From an uncultured Candidatus Saccharibacteria bacterium (lineage in GTDB: Bacteria > Patescibacteriota > Saccharimonadia > Saccharimonadales > Saccharimonadaceae), in contig CAMJSX010000002.1 of NCBI GenBank assembly GCA_946408595.1, positions 31,578-95,577 on the forward strand: DNA of 64,000 nt. The letters are read 5' to 3'. The translations under genes and the position numbers were made by a program. The notes under the pieces were generated by a model. The model was not told the origin of the DNA. It searched no databases and saw nothing but the letters and a program-made list of their open reading frames with translations. Every line of letters starts with the position of its first letter. Position 1 is the first letter of the stretch. Of this stretch, positions 3 through 52,452 are shown piece after piece.

Positions 3-1097
3 GACCTCAACGCTGAGACCGCCGACATTGCTGTTCGTACCACGGTAATTGCTGCTTTTTCCGAAACTCAAAAATCACCACTCGTTATGCCAAGCGTCAA
101 CATCACTAAATACGTACCAGGAGAAATGATGGAATATACTGCCACTGCTGACATTATCCCAGAAGTTAAGCTTTGTGATTACAAAAAACTTGGCGTCAAA
201 AAAGAGGAAGTTAAGATTCTCGCTAAAGACGTCCAGGGAGTACTTGATAATATCGCTAAGTCATTTGCCGAGAAAAAGGCCGTCAAACGTGCTGCCAAAC
301 TAACCGATGAAGTAATCATCGATTTCGTCGGCAAAAAAGATGGTGTCGCTTTCCCAGGTGGTTCAGCTAAAGATTTTCACCTAGTACTTGGCTCAATGAG
401 CCTCATTCCTGGTTTTGAGGATGGTATCGTCGGGCATGAACCAGGCGATAAGTTTGAGCTTAAACTCACTTTCCCAAAAGACTATGGCATGACCGATTTA
501 GCTGGAGTCAAAACCGTATTTGAAATCCTTTTGAAGCAAGTCAATGAAGTTAAAACTCCTGAAATCGATGACGAATTAGCCAAAAAAGTCGGACCTTTCA
601 AAGATCTAGCTGCTTTAAAGGACGATATTAAGAAGAACTTAGCTCTCCAAACTGAACAACGCGAAGGTGAAAAGTATAAAGACGCTTTAATCAAGGCCCT
701 GGTAGCTAAATCCAAAATTCCAGCGCCAGAAATTTTAGTCAAAGATCAACTTCGCATCATCAAAGATGATATTATGCGCAATGCTTCCGCACAACAAATT
801 AGTTTTGAAGAATACTTGAAGCGTGCCGGCGAGACTGAGAAAACTTGGGAAGAAAAAGCCACCAAGATTGCCGAGGAGCGCGTTAAGGCATCACTTGCCC
901 TTCAAACCATTGCCGTAGAACAAAAAATCACTGTTTCGGACGAATTAGTAGCTGCCAAAATTGCCGAACTTCGCGACGTTTATCGCAAATCACCAGATGC
1001 TTTGAAATCACTCAAAGATCCAAATGTCAAAATGGACATTAAGAATCGCATGACGATTGAAAAAACTATCGATTATCTTGTCGAAAACAACAAATAG
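3..1097 (+). CDS. tig: Trigger factor, 5' truncated by window edge
   Basis: FKBP-like segment (VIIDFVGKKDGVAFPGGSA...LIPGFEDGIVG) plus C-terminal domain; frame is open back to base 3. Confidence 0.93.
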   Translation, partial: DLNAETADIAVRTTVIAAFSETQKSPLVMPSVNITKYVPGEMMEYTATADIIPEVKLCDYKKLGVKKEEVKILAKDVQGVLDNIAKSFAEKKAVKRAAKLTDEVIIDFVGKKDGVAFPGGSAKDFHLVLGSMSLIPGFEDGIVGHEPGDKFELKLTFPKDYGMTDLAGVKTVFEILLKQVNEVKTPEIDDELAKKVGPFKDLAALKDDIKKNLALQTEQREGEKYKDALIKALVAKSKIPAPEILVKDQLRIIKDDIMRNASAQQISFEEYLKRAGETEKTWEEKATKIAEERVKASLALQTIAVEQKITVSDELVAAKIAELRDVYRKSPDALKSLKDPNVKMDIKNRMTIEKTIDYLVENNK

Positions 1098-1106: not shown

Positions 1107-1193
1107 TAGGTAAAGAGTTTCATCTCACTTGCTATTGCTGTATTCTGCAGGTGGGGCAATAATATAATATATATAATATATAAGGAATTTTGA

Positions 1194-1607
1194 ATGCCAA
1201 CTATTAACCAGTTGATTCGCAAGCCTCGCAAAAAGGCTGCGAGAAAATCCAAATCTCCAGCTCTTGGTTCTATCATTAACACTTTGAAGACCAAGCGCTA
1301 TGAGACTGCTGCACCTTTGAAACGTGGTGTATGTATTAAAGTTACTACCAAGACTCCAAAGAAACCAAACTCCGCTATGCGTAAGGTCGCTCGTGTGCGT
1401 CTTACTAATGGCCAAGAAGTTTGGGCCTACATTGGTGGTGAAGGTCACAACCTTCAGGAACACGCCGTCGTACTAGTACGTGGTGGCCGTGTACCAGATC
1501 TTCCTGGTGTACGTTATCACGTAGTTCGTGGTACTTTGGATCTTCAAGGCGTACAAGGTCGTAAGCAAGGTCGTAGTAAATACGGCGCAAAGAAGGAGGG
1601 CAACTAA
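1194..1607 (+). CDS. rpsL: 30S ribosomal protein S12
   Basis: [31 protein letters not shown] motifs. Confidence 0.99.
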
Positions 1608-5370: not shown

Positions 5371-8752
<3,382 letters not shown>

Positions 8753-8790: not shown

Positions 8791-10140
8791 ATGGACGAGA
8801 GGTTAAGACAAAAACTTAGTAAACTCCCGGTTTCACCGGGGGTTTATTTTCATAAAAATAAATCTGGCGAAATTATCTATGTCGGCAAAGCTGCAGTTTT
8901 AAAGAACCGCGTTCGTCAGTATTTTCAAAAATCACACAAAGACACTAAGACCGAAGCCTTAGTTGCAGAGATTTACGACACAGACTGGATCGTCGTAGAT
9001 ACTGAAATGGATGCGTTGTTTTTGGAGTCTGAAATGATTAAGCGTTACATGCCAAAATGGAACATTCTATTACGTGATGACAAAACCGTATCCTATGTTC
9101 GTATTTCCATGCAAGACGAAATACCATATGTTTCTTTTACGCGCACACCGATGGATGATAAAGCGGTATATATAGGCCCTTTTTATGGTAAATTGGTAGT
9201 CGAAAAAGCCCTCCGGACGCTTCGACGAATTTTCCCATATTATGACAAACCCTACACCGGCAAAAAGACTTTAAATACTGACTTAAAACTCACGCCAGGA
9301 ATTGAAATCGGAAACTGTACTCCTAAAGATTATAAAAGAAACCTACGAAAACTAATTAGATACCTTGAGGGCGATCGCGAAAAACTCTTAAAAGAGCTCG
9401 AAAAAACTATGTACGACGAGGCTTCTAAAGGGAATTATGAACTAGCGGCCGAAGCCCGTAACCAATTGTTTGGCTTAAAAGAACTAAAGAAAAAGATCGT
9501 CTTTTCCGACAAAGAATTCTTAGACATCTCATCAGACCAGGCCCTGTCTGATTTGCAAAAAATACTAGGACTAGAAAAACCACCGCGCAGAATCGAAGGA
9601 TATGATATTTCGCACCAGTCTGGCACCAATACGGTGGCAAGCATGGTGGTATTTATTAATGGCACCGCAACGCGAAGCGAGTATCGCAAATTCAAAATCC
9701 GCTCTTCAAAAAATGACGATTTAAAAAGCATGGTAGAAGTAATTACGAGACGGTTAAAACACGCCGAATGGGACTTTCCAGACTTAATAATTCTAGACGG
9801 TGGCATCAACCAAGTAAATGTCGTCTTACCACTAGTAGAACCATACCACATACCAGTAATCGGCCGCGACAAATCCGGCAACCATTCCCACAACGCCCAT
9901 GTAAACCTGATAATTCCAGGCAAGTTGTCGAATCGAAGGGCCTCCGGAGCGCGGCAGCGCGAGGATGAGTGCCGGCCGCCCGTGGCGACGGGCCGGCCGG
10001 ACACAGCCCGAGATCGACACTTGCTGGAATTATCTCCCGGTTCACACGTCGCGCGCCTAATCGCCCGCATCGACGAAGAATCGCACCGATTTGCCATCAC
10101 GTATCATTCTTTACTCAAACGAAAAAATATGCTAAAGTAG
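8791..10140 (+). CDS. uvrC: Excinuclease UvrC-like, short form without C-terminal HhH
   Basis: GIY-YIG (PGVYFH...IIYVGKA..LKNRVRQYF), RIEGYDISH, PDLIILDGG, ESHRFAITYH. Confidence 0.92.
   Translation: MDERLRQKLSKLPVSPGVYFHKNKSGEIIYVGKAAVLKNRVRQYFQKSHKDTKTEALVAEIYDTDWIVVDTEMDALFLESEMIKRYMPKWNILLRDDKTVSYVRISMQDEIPYVSFTRTPMDDKAVYIGPFYGKLVVEKALRTLRRIFPYYDKPYTGKKTLNTDLKLTPGIEIGNCTPKDYKRNLRKLIRYLEGDREKLLKELEKTMYDEASKGNYELAAEARNQLFGLKELKKKIVFSDKEFLDISSDQALSDLQKILGLEKPPRRIEGYDISHQSGTNTVASMVVFINGTATRSEYRKFKIRSSKNDDLKSMVEVITRRLKHAEWDFPDLIILDGGINQVNVVLPLVEPYHIPVIGRDKSGNHSHNAHVNLIIPGKLSNRRASGARQREDECRPPVATGRPDTARDRHLLELSPGSHVARLIARIDEESHRFAITYHSLLKRKNMLK
9909..10034. repeat. 126-bp GC-rich palindrome in frame within uvrC
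   Basis: Arms gataattccaggcaagttgtcga / tcgacacttgctggaattatc; inner hairpin ccggccgcccgt-ggcg-acgggccggccgg. Confidence 0.85.
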
Positions 10141-10158
10141 AGTAAGAGGAGTTATTTT

Positions 10159-51801: not shown

Positions 51802-52452
51802 TACTCGGTGGGGAGCGTAATATAACACAGTTTGACCGTGAATGCCCGCGCGCCGCATGGCTTATGCCAGGCCCGGCAACGCTAGCCTGGTAAGTGCCAG
51901 CATCAATAGGCAAATGGTCATAAAAACTAGAGGGCAGCGCCCGTCTAGCATCGAGACGCAGTATCGGATACTGACGTTAAACTCTGAGTTATATGATTTG
52001 TTTTGTCATAAGGGACCGCCCTTATCACAAGAACAAATGCCCCCCACCGGGGGCCAGTACTTTAAAATGGGGTTCGTGAGAAAAAACGAAAATCTTACCC
52101 AAGAAAGGAGGCAAGGATATTTGGAAGACACCTTCATGTGCTTCTCGGTCCGACGGCCGAAGTTGGAAAGATTGAGTCAGGTATTTGTACCTGCAAAGGA
52201 AGCAGAATTCCTCCTAAGAACATACAGAACCAAGAAAAGACGGACGATTTCTAATGCAAGTTGTGTCAGGCCGAAACACCTGATGTTGCCACATCATAAA
52301 CTGCATCCAGAATAACCTAGTTTTAAGGTTACACGTTCAAAAAACTATGAGGCTCTAGCCTAAATAGTCATTGTAGGCAAAGATTTTTCTTCAAGAAGTT
52401 TTTCTCCTTATATACCCCTCCAAAAGCCCCGGCAAATGCCGGGGCTAATTTT
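51802..52452 (+). ncRNA. Candidate large structured RNA of unknown family
   Basis: At least 12 hairpins or nested helices between a consensus promoter and a strong terminator; no recognisable protein. Confidence 0.6.

Follow-up and report, generated by a model that had tools for sequence, protein, structure and literature searches.

Why does the uvrC gene of a Saccharibacterium carry a long GC-rich palindrome within its reading frame? The gene lies in a 64,000-nucleotide stretch of DNA (the window) from an uncultured Candidatus Saccharibacteria bacterium, and the nearest loci come from metagenome-assembled genomes of sheep, goat and yak gut. The first-pass annotation, made from the letters alone, had proposed a coding-tolerated element comparable to the Rickettsia palindromic elements (RPEs) in a genome of the CPR lineage, and our analysis supports this proposal. 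We put at roughly 75% the probability that the palindrome belongs, as one resident copy, to a multi-copy, non-autonomous family of GC-rich palindromic DNA, similar to RPEs and intragenic REPs, that is translated as a protein loop. The family is previously undescribed and is hosted by Saccharibacteria of animal guts, mostly those of ruminants; in the literature searched, nothing comparable is described from Saccharibacteria or Patescibacteria. The features of the locus are collected in Table 1.

Table 1 Features of the palindrome and its host gene, in window positions.
Feature	Position	Strand	Remarks
uvrC	8791..10140	+	449 aa; host gene of the element; based on ORF listing and Pfam match
Whole palindrome (arms and core)	9909..10034		Translated (inferred from the intact frame) in UvrC residues about 373-415
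Outermost left stem GATAATTCCAG	9909..9919	+	Host codons (L)IIPG, found in empty-site orthologues too
Inner left arm	9920..9932	+	Locus-specific; not common to copies in other genes
Conserved core, 80 nt	9933..10012	-	Multi-copy unit of the family; nhmmer profile match
P1b, 5' half	9936..9940		Basal GGGCC/GGCCC-type stem closing the three-way junction; pairs with 10006-10010
P2 mini-hairpin CGCG-GCAG-CGCG and closing pair	9944..9964		Model columns 49-69
P3 long GC-rich hairpin, tip CCCGTGGCGACGGG	9969..10004		Model columns 9-44
P1b, 3' half	10006..10010		Pairs with 9936-9940
Inner right arm	10013..10023	+	Reverse complement of 9920-9932 (with bulges); locus-specific
Outermost right stem CTGGAATTATC	10024..10034	+	Host codons L-E-L-S

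The segment is as GC-rich as first described, with about 65–69% GC (67–69% in 100-nt windows) compared to 41% for the whole window. The terminal arms and the inner hairpin were also confirmed: the ends form a perfect 11-nt inverted repeat (GATAATTCCAG/CTGGAATTATC) that extends into stems of ~25 bp with two to three bulges, and the inner hairpin is CCGGCCGCCCGT-GGCG-ACGGGCCGGCCGG. Folded as RNA, the palindrome has a predicted energy of −78.8 kcal/mol (z −7.5), equaled by none of 200 shuffles; folded as DNA, the energy is −45.6 kcal/mol (z −7.3). The palindrome is in frame in uvrC, and the encoded peptide, which includes ASGARQREDECRPPVATGRPDTAR, had been quoted correctly; the length of 42 codons also stands, although the element is not codon-aligned. 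No second GC-rich palindrome of this kind is present elsewhere in the window, whose remaining GC islands encode a low-complexity N-terminus (7421–7550) or are not palindromic (51825–51913, z +0.96). Lack of read support would have refuted the element, but the segment recurs in contigs assembled from independent metagenome runs, gut and bovine, and is therefore not an artefact of a single assembly.

UvrC matches the Pfam families GIY-YIG, UVR and UvrC_RNaseH_dom, and its homologues are named excinuclease ABC subunit C or GIY-YIG nuclease. The protein is made up of GIY-YIG, UVR and RNase H-like endonuclease domains without the C-terminal HhH2 domain. In agreement with the placement first given, a loop of the RNase H-like domain, the insert follows the last strand and precedes the last helix of this domain, in an interval that spans 54 residues in the window protein compared to 15 in T. 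maritima. The AlphaFold2 model, obtained from a 19-sequence alignment, was poor (mean pLDDT of 52.7) and was used solely to note that residues 379–408 score lowest and have no secondary structure. That the insert is translated and tolerated in the folded protein is supported only indirectly, by intact frames, the essential nature of the host genes and the loop position, without peptide or stranded RNA data.

Alignment of orthologues revealed the empty site: 41 of the 120 closest UvrC proteins lack the insert, and the remainder are filled, in all six orientation and frame classes, or contain deletion remnants. Orthologues with the same loop and no palindromy, which would have spoken against the element, were not encountered. 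Filled and empty pairs exist at 98–99% identity, and the length variants include partial (423–441 aa) and extended (459–471 aa) proteins. At one locus (L208), both arm stubs are kept and the core is gone, which identifies a deletion remnant. In each arm, the outermost 8–11 bp consist of host codons (IIP, LELS), which empty-site orthologues have as well, and the ELS/ELP motif of the right stem region is also present in distant species. Because the outermost stem consists of host codons (IIP/ELS), the net insert is 93 nt and not 126 nt, that is, 31 aa compared to the empty orthologues (449 versus 418 aa). The starting gataa, from which the first-pass annotation had drawn a tie to its E1/E2, is likewise host coding sequence (Leu-Ile-Ile), so the tie has no meaning.

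The mobile unit also proved smaller than assumed. It had been equated with the 126-nt palindrome, whereas only the 80-nt core is common to other loci. A census with the core profile (E < 1e-6) over the window and 200 Saccharibacteria loci gave ~75 copies in the collected Saccharibacteria DNA, with every contig at 40–50% GC; the minus strand given for the core in Table 1 is relative to the family model, CTCGGG..CCCTCGA. Intact, stop-free ORFs of 150–825 aa contain 56 of the 75 copies, oriented with the gene in 32 cases and against it in 24. These genic copies fall into 23 host protein clusters, and the search for other in-frame copies that had been proposed thus came out in favor. Host proteins confirmed by Pfam are Der/EngA, TsaD, DnaX, LeuRS, QueA, class-V aminotransferase, PriA, Tgt, PheT and UvrD; LigA is also among the hosts, and some host proteins hold two or three copies. 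Non-genic copies, where checked, lie between different complete genes and split none. Metagenome depth over 9934–10026 is 15–40x that of the flanks, and in metagenome contigs many different flanks join, and loose contig ends occur, at 9933/9945 and 10012/13. Adaptation of the core to coding DNA was rejected, as stop codons are not depleted (4.09 of six frames open versus 4.22 in composition-matched shuffles).

Cores that are 100% identical and have unrelated arms were found in two genes of one contig, in both L185 and L092, while only 1.5% of core pairs between contigs reach 97% identity. The core therefore moves or is homogenized without its arms. Since sampling amounted to one or two copies per genome, arm sharing within a genome may be under-detected. 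A 52-aa concatenated peptide query returned only two weak matches from the protein database, one of them a TatD-family fragment, and was uninformative. Phage, plasmid and IMG/VR collections gave no true match, with three viral pattern matches failing the profile. No transposase, such as the RAYT (Y1) enzyme linked to tagged REPs, is encoded among the genes called around eight uvrC loci; for the family, neither a transposase or autonomous partner nor a fresh insertion was found.

The core is predicted to fold into a three-way junction of P1b, P2 and P3, the last a 15-bp GC hairpin, and the alignment of copies supports this fold. Pairing is kept in 93.2% of cells compared to 81.1% in shuffles (none of 500 reached the observed value), double changes occur in 18 of 26 core pairs, and the covariation score of 0.332 exceeds those of shuffles (0.113) and slid controls (0.03–0.08). 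In P3, 97.4% of cells are paired and compensatory double changes affect 11 of 15 pairs, with zero G-U intermediates; an invariant GCGTC marks its base. P2 is near-invariant in sequence, its closing pair showing all four Watson–Crick types among copies, and the P1b pairing register differs between subfamilies. The restriction to Watson–Crick pairs suggests a constraint at the level of DNA rather than mRNA.

Each copy has its own inverted-repeat arms of 15–30 bp, whose complementarity score is 12.0, compared to 0.7 for arms taken from different copies. Arm sequences are unique, except in orthologous copies and in one subgroup that shares the outer arm GGGGTCCTGTC. Between orthologous copies, arms are 40–75% identical yet complementary, and cores are 88–100% identical. 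Filled and empty sites were compared at the codon level, since automated nucleotide alignments were unreliable. In two clean pairs, uvrC L201/L202 and Tgt L185/L178, one arm consists of homologous host DNA, of which the opposite arm is an inverted copy; neither pair shows a direct target-site duplication, the extra flank being inverted. The QueA pair is silent on a host-derived arm because each of its arms is self-complementary. At TsaD site 2 (L199), both arms are missing from empty orthologues, so the arms do not always come from the adjacent host flank. Between orthologous copies whose arms are homologous, the core itself can be flipped, as seen in uvrC and at TsaD site 3.

Replication template switching is documented to homogenize the arms of inverted repeats, to invert spacers and to create and maintain hairpins (PMC8604942, PMC8794818). 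In the explanation that we favor, copies settle in spacers as well as within genes, where they survive only if the number of added bases is divisible by three and no stop is introduced. Translation then adds a loop of ~30–40 aa (31 aa in UvrC), as is known for RPEs and intragenic REPs. By inference, the arms are probably made and kept perfect by template switching between inverted repeats, in which one flank may be copied inverted to the other side, the arms homogenized and the spacer (the core) inverted. Insertion appears, again by inference, to favor sites with a pre-existing short inverted repeat (AATTCC..GGAATT, CCAGG..CCTGG). We entertain tentatively, and with more doubt than belief, a further proposal that the 80-nt core is a structure-specific mobile element that enters the loops of short pre-existing hairpins and palindromizes its target by copying the adjacent host sequence in inverted orientation, so that the target duplication is inverted and not direct, after which the hairpin would be under selection and not kept by homogenization alone. 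Selection on the long hairpin is suggested by a comparison of the window with the orthologous locus L200, in which the palindrome shows 0 of 126 differences despite 36% divergence at third codon positions (64% identical); the rest of uvrC is 85.9% identical.

The same conservation can be read as a sign that the cell has taken the element into its service as DNA, for example for binding or cleavage by a host protein or as an uptake or recombination signal, with copies kept by selection. REP/BIME sites, which bind gyrase or IHF, would be the model. Orthologous cores are always more conserved (88–100%) than the surrounding coding DNA (75–86%), which counts against the favored explanation, since a neutral selfish resident should be less constrained. 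The unchanged palindrome in L200, the strictly Watson–Crick pairing and the near-invariant P2 region point the same way, as do the intergenic copies, which often lie just past stop codons and are followed by T-runs. We nevertheless consider recruitment unlikely. Near-identical strains differ in presence and absence of the element, deletion remnants exist, and the copies, in both orientations, occupy unrelated positions in at least 23 protein families. The analysis brought up no candidate for a partner protein, and homogenization among copies can also yield conserved cores.

If the element instead served within the mRNA as a structured RNA, such as a regulatory hairpin, processing site or ribozyme whose folding is under selection, the very stable predicted fold and the strong covariation in P3, P2 and the arms would be accounted for; contigs of metatranscriptome run X24 do carry the core with flanks, although this is weak evidence. 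This explanation is quite improbable, as P3 lacks G-U intermediates and the wobble signature of an mRNA-level constraint was negative, with no G.U excess in sense-strand orientation (20 G.U versus 36 A.C). Presence in both gene orientations and the flipped cores between orthologues also speak against it. In Rfam 15, the window has no match at gathering score, and even a search to E ≤ 10 yielded nothing below E = 2 for 9800–10150.

Even less credible is the absence of the segment from the finished protein, whether through intron-like removal, ribosome bypass (as in T4 gene 60 or the mitochondrial byps) or protein excision. Bypass elements resemble GC-rich hairpins in AT-rich coding DNA, but nothing direct favors such a route here. 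All 56 genic copies keep the frame free of stops, and the checked non-genic copies separate different genes. No read joint skips the element in the metagenome runs or in the metatranscriptome, where the evidence is weak; 31 aa is far below the size of an intein, and no Rfam intron matched. Finally, a hypervariable, locus-specific loop grown in place in uvrC without mobility, or an assembly artefact, can be dismissed: the loop does vary in length even in species without the element (84–111 nt from anchor motif to anchor motif), but the same 80-nt core recurs in ligA, tsaD, der, dnaX, leuS, other genes and spacers, and the segment was recovered from independent runs.

Having weighed these alternatives, we compared the resident palindromic family with known systems. 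RPE-1 and its relatives are repeated palindromes of ~100–150 bp that occur between genes and in frame in many housekeeping genes, add peptide segments by read-through, are present or absent between related lineages and reside in a small-genome, host-dependent bacterium, and in all these respects the present element is alike, its read-through being inferred from intact frames. It meets the RPE criteria of a dispersed palindromic repeat of ~100–150 bp with in-frame, stop-free copies in genes of known proteins. RPEs belong to Alphaproteobacteria, whereas the hosts here are Saccharibacteria of the CPR; the present element is GC-rich within an AT-rich genome, and no sequence relationship has been shown. 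Furthermore, only the 80-nt core is common to its copies, the arms are unique to each locus and co-vary, and a single site can hold the core in opposite orientations. The element therefore works like an RPE and is not filed as one, because its host is a Saccharibacterium.

GTAG- and CGTC-tagged REPs are small GC-rich hairpins of 20–40 bp with an unpaired tag, mostly extragenic, and many of their intragenic copies lie in replication and repair genes (uvrA, uvrB) and encode 20–30 extra amino acids (Di Nocera et al. 2013, PMC3733652). CGTC REPs have 8–9-bp stems that start with A-T pairs, loops of 4–5 nt and a CCA tail, and have no known transposase (PMC3733652). The invariant GCGTC at the base of P3 prompted us to consider membership in this group, which was rejected on stem architecture, P3 being a 15-bp stem made up entirely of G-C pairs inside an 80-nt three-way junction. 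In addition, 75% of the present copies are genic, whereas REPs are mostly intergenic, and no head-to-head dimers were seen.

Protein-extending MITEs are known from bacteria, for example, the QMITEs of Coxiella burnetii (PMC5896051; reviewed in PMC10969869). The present element shares with MITEs that it is a short, non-autonomous repeat with inverted-repeat ends that can lie in ORFs and add peptide segments. The copies of a classical MITE, however, agree in their terminal inverted repeats, show direct target-site duplications and have a parent IS, whereas the terminal repeats here differ at every locus and a parent IS is not known. A classical MITE was rejected on the arm scores (12.0 for own arms, 0.7 between copies) and the lack of a direct target-site duplication in the two clean pairs. 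The mobile GC clusters and double-hairpin elements of fungal mitochondria are likewise GC-rich palindromes that have spread in an AT-rich genome, with in-frame copies in var1; they differ in belonging to organelle genomes, in their length (~30–50 bp) and in their AT-rich direct flanks, and nothing indicates a relationship. Hairpins generated by template switching resemble the present copies in their perfect stems without wobble intermediates, multi-base 'compensatory' changes, homogenized inverted-repeat arms, spacer inversion and effects inside coding sequence (PMC8794818, PMC8604942). Template switching names a mutational mechanism, not a family of elements, and in the present case it would operate around a core that is conserved and mobile.

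Saccharibacteria and other CPR bacteria have tiny genomes that are thought to be poor in repetitive DNA. Here, a prolific element, selfish on our reading, would put 30–40 extra residues into core proteins of replication, repair and translation. After Rickettsia, this host-dependent lineage would be a second and independent case in which selfish DNA occupies coding genes. The insertions account for the length classes of the host proteins, metagenome assemblies break at the core, and the copies can serve as strain-level markers. With many replicates of one core and co-varying, flippable arms, the family therefore offers an unusually clean data set on template-switch hairpins in coding DNA. If the core does palindromize its targets, the insertion signature and the relationship between host and element would be undescribed for bacterial MITEs, REPs and RPEs, and the family would keep supplying the essential proteins of a CPR lineage with new surface loops.

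The GC-rich palindrome that the first-pass annotation had placed inside UvrC is real and far beyond chance, because base composition, fold, position within the ORF and recovery in independent metagenome contigs all bear it out. The segment (GATAATTCCAGGCAAGTTGTCGAATCG...CGAGATCGACACTTGCTGGAATTATC) reaches a GC content of 0.67–0.69 compared to 0.41 for the whole window, its two ends are exact inverted repeats of 11 nt, with a hairpin (CCGGCCGCCCGT/ACGGGCCGGCCGG) nested between them. The single-strand fold is one long stem capped by a three-way junction, at −78.8 kcal/mol for RNA (z = −7.5) and −45.6 kcal/mol for DNA (z = −7.3), each better than every shuffle. The peptide previously quoted matches the translation of the reading frame, and gut and bovine metagenome contigs from several independent runs back the segment. 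Within the endonuclease domain, the insert follows the last strand (IPVIGRDK) and precedes the last helix (..DEESHRFA..), a region of 54 residues compared to 15 in structures 2NRR and 2NRT from T. maritima; in a low-confidence AlphaFold model this stretch scored lowest and lacked secondary structure. RNA evidence is thin: in one metatranscriptome, core-bearing contigs had their flanks and no joint skipping the element was found. UvrC of this clade (416–450 aa), labeled 'GIY-YIG nuclease family protein' by the sources, stops directly after the RNase H-like endonuclease domain, without a C-terminal helix-hairpin-helix domain.

Coordinates of the palindrome, related copies and other features (window positions unless a collected Saccharibacteria locus, L, is named)
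Feature	Position	Size	Remark
uvrC ORF	8791–10140	449 aa	Matches GIY-YIG, UVR and UvrC RNase H-like endonuclease domain; hosts the palindrome
Palindrome	9909–10034	126 bp	Core plus arms
Core	9933–10012	80 nt	Minus strand relative to the family model
AT-rich hairpin	2084–2253	170 nt	Near perfect, nested arms, rpsG-gap spacer
GC-rich stretch	7421–7550		GC 0.60; Pro/Gly/Glu/Ala-rich low-complexity N-terminus of ORF 7412–8752; non-palindromic, unrelated to the element
Palindrome of L200	L200:7157–7282		uvrC
Core in ligA	L021:7078–7155		In frame
Core after rpsG	L002:3288–3367		Directly after the stop codon
Essential genes with two or three copies	L199:9566–10090; L144:7135–7860		
GGGGTCCTGTC outer arms	L144:7135–7161; L192:5570–5596; L093:~610–640; L171:~190–215		Different genes (TsaD, Der, PheT)
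Run of N	L004:~1190–1340		GTDB representative

An empty site was found among the orthologues. The 120 nearest UvrC proteins (76–97% identical, named Candidatus Saccharibacteria) sort into length classes: 41 have a short loop (416–421 aa, for example ..VIPGK-GHLELSTGSH..), the majority of the remainder (447–450 aa) carry ~30 extra residues exactly at the element position, and intermediate (423–441 aa) and longer (459–471 aa) classes also occur. The extra peptides, seemingly unrelated (..SGARQREDE.., ..FRSAAARGL.., ..ERGSASISAGRPWRR.., ..LGSRPSGPSPRA..RAAALRNP.., ..SGRVASARRHGASALTLALPRSG.., ..SSPCQAP..), are one DNA sequence translated in all six frames, from either orientation, as confirmed by the DNA of species-representative genomes: uvrC of L001 and L002 contains the window's core inverted. 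The spacing between the anchors GRDKSGxH and SHxARLxARI is 84–111 nt in more distant species compared to 180 nt in the window; the net insertion that follows from these comparisons is 93 nt (31 aa). Host codons for IIP and (L)ELS, also found in empty orthologues, make up the outermost stem (ATAATTCC/GGAATTAT). Among deletion derivatives, L208 retains 6 nt of the core between a partial left and a partial right arm, while L204 and the 423–441-aa proteins retain the core ends.

Filled and empty uvrC alleles (L205/L206 and L201/L202) are 98–99% identical as proteins, with divergence several-fold higher beside the insertion site (~30 nt either side) than elsewhere in the gene; a recombination tract or palindrome-associated mutagenesis could account for this excess. 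In L004, a run of N partly masks the uvrC copy, so that repeat masking or assembly gaps fall together with the element, and the core is likewise a frequent breakpoint of metagenome contigs. L010 (CAVDHS010000028.1), titled Bulleidia sp., has a UvrC of Saccharibacteria type, 73% identical to that of the window, and is probably a mis-binned contig.

Part of the palindrome is shared by many loci. Across four metagenome runs, depth over 9934–10026 was 15–40x that of the flanks, and contigs with many different flanks terminated at 9933/9945 and 10012/13, which together delimit the core. Metagenome contigs were scanned with the best-conserved 19-mer of the core and then with an nhmmer profile, which recovered ~75 copies on contigs of 40–50% GC, several contigs carrying two. 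The in-frame copies sought in other proteins were found: 56 of the 75 lie inside stop-free ORFs of 150–825 aa (32 in the orientation of the gene, 24 opposite), spread over 23 host protein clusters, with Der/EngA, TsaD, DnaX, LeuRS, QueA, class-V aminotransferase, PriA, Tgt, PheT and UvrD confirmed by Pfam. Three distinct insertion sites occur in tsaD, and a single essential gene can hold two or three copies; the QueA ORF of L178 has two or three GC-rich inserts. Non-genic copies are intergenic, including one after rplS in L043, and those checked separate different complete genes (L1 from a membrane protein, Pta from phosphoglucomutase, and one convergent with GluRS); none of them splits or frame-shifts a gene. 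Nothing similar was present in phage, plasmid and IMG/VR collections, and no Rfam family matches. The rpsG-gap spacer, which holds a core copy in L002, has inserts of varied length in other loci. In the window it holds the AT-rich hairpin (DNA fold −45.8 kcal/mol, z −11.7), whose center (TTCGAGG..CCGAGAA) is similar to the core ends; the hairpin may be a remnant that lacks the core or may belong to a second element family, and it probably corresponds to one of the elements named E1/E2 in the first-pass annotation.

The structure of the core, a basal stem (P1b), a mini-hairpin (P2) and a 15-bp GC hairpin (P3), was assessed on 41 distinct cores in a gap-free alignment of 80 columns. Standard pairs filled 93.2% of cells compared to 81.1% in shuffles (0/500 reached the observed value), both sides had changed in 18 of the 26 pairs, and the covariation score was 0.332 compared to 0.113 in shuffles and 0.03–0.08 with partners slid. 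P3 was 97.4% paired, with compensatory changes at 11/15 pairs and zero G-U intermediates; for the pair formed by columns 49 and 69, C-G, U-A, A-U and G-C all occur. G.U mismatches (20) were not commoner than A.C (36) in sense-strand-oriented genic copies, and no stop-codon depletion beyond the GC-content expectation was found. Given these properties, the constraint inferred from the alignment is of a DNA type, strictly Watson–Crick, and not of a folded-mRNA type.

Outside the core, every copy is flanked by near-perfect inverted repeats (median 22 nt) that pair with each other (complementarity score 12.0) and not with those flanking another copy (0.7). Arm sequences are unique except in orthologous copies and in one subgroup sharing GGGGTCCTGTC (26/27 nt agree between L144 and L192); this subgroup may represent a nested or composite element that has taken its arms into the mobile unit. 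Between orthologous copies, arms diverge at least as much as flanking coding DNA (40–75% identity), yet remain complementary in each lineage (for example L197/L161, L185/L178, L113/L180 and L088/L163), and cores are 88–100% identical, above the flanks at 75–86%. Two cores in different genes of one contig can be 100% identical with unrelated arms (Tgt and QueA in L185; also L092), which means that copying or homogenization of the core leaves its arms out; between contigs, just 1.5% of pairs attain 97% identity. Arm origin could be judged from two clean filled/empty comparisons. In uvrC (L201/L202), host sequence CCAGGCAAAAAGTC (PGKKS) serves as the left arm and its inverted copy as the right arm, which rejoins the host at CCTGG (complementary to CCAGG); in Tgt (L185/L178) the roles are reversed, with a host-derived right arm (EKAFGY versus KKHFPY) and an inverted copy on the left. 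The host-derived arm was on the CTCGGG side of the core in both. At TsaD site 2, neither arm is present in empty orthologues. At TsaD site 3 and in uvrC, the core is flipped between orthologous copies with homologous arms.

The main rival, that the hairpin is under selection or functions as DNA, cannot be excluded. The palindromes of the window and L200 show 0/126 differences, although the remaining uvrC is 85.9% identical (64% at third codon positions); at the gene-wide rate, such identity has a probability of 5e-9, and the closest differences on either side are 9899 (10 nt before the palindrome) and 10040 (6 nt after it). Cores in general are also better conserved than the surrounding coding DNA. 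Homogenization among copies can explain the latter, but it leaves the locus-specific arms unexplained, and the rival therefore stands. The element is not assigned to the Rickettsia palindromic elements (RPEs) or the intragenic REPs, as the host phylum differs and no sequence relationship has been shown, although it works alike. CGTC-REP identity fails on architecture despite an invariant GCGTC in the core. Of a classical MITE it lacks both defining features: terminal repeats conserved among copies and, in the two clean filled/empty pairs, direct duplication of the target.

Replication template switching between inverted repeats, whose documented outcomes include arm and spacer effects (PMC8604942, PMC8794818), would build and maintain the arms. 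It is proposed, as an inference, because four features agree with these outcomes: locus-specific arms, pairing kept perfect with no wobble intermediates, one host flank repeated in inverted form on the opposite side, and core inversion. That insertion sites recur and that their junctions carry short inverted repeats of the host (AATTCC..GGAATT, CCAGG..CCTGG and CCTCAAC..GTTGAGG) suggests that core insertion prefers small pre-existing hairpins; the agent moving the core was not identified.

In the literature searched, such elements were described for neither Saccharibacteria nor Patescibacteria. Many intragenic REPs lie in replication and repair genes (PMC3733652). With its dispersed, in-frame, frame-preserving copies, the element matches the RPE-like behavior first suggested for it: it behaves as a selfish non-autonomous palindromic repeat, tolerated in proteins when the frame is kept. 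Selfish palindromic repeats tolerated in frame are an already known kind (RPEs and intragenic REPs); new here is a conserved GC-rich core with locus-specific, co-varying and flipping arms, mostly genic, in a CPR lineage.
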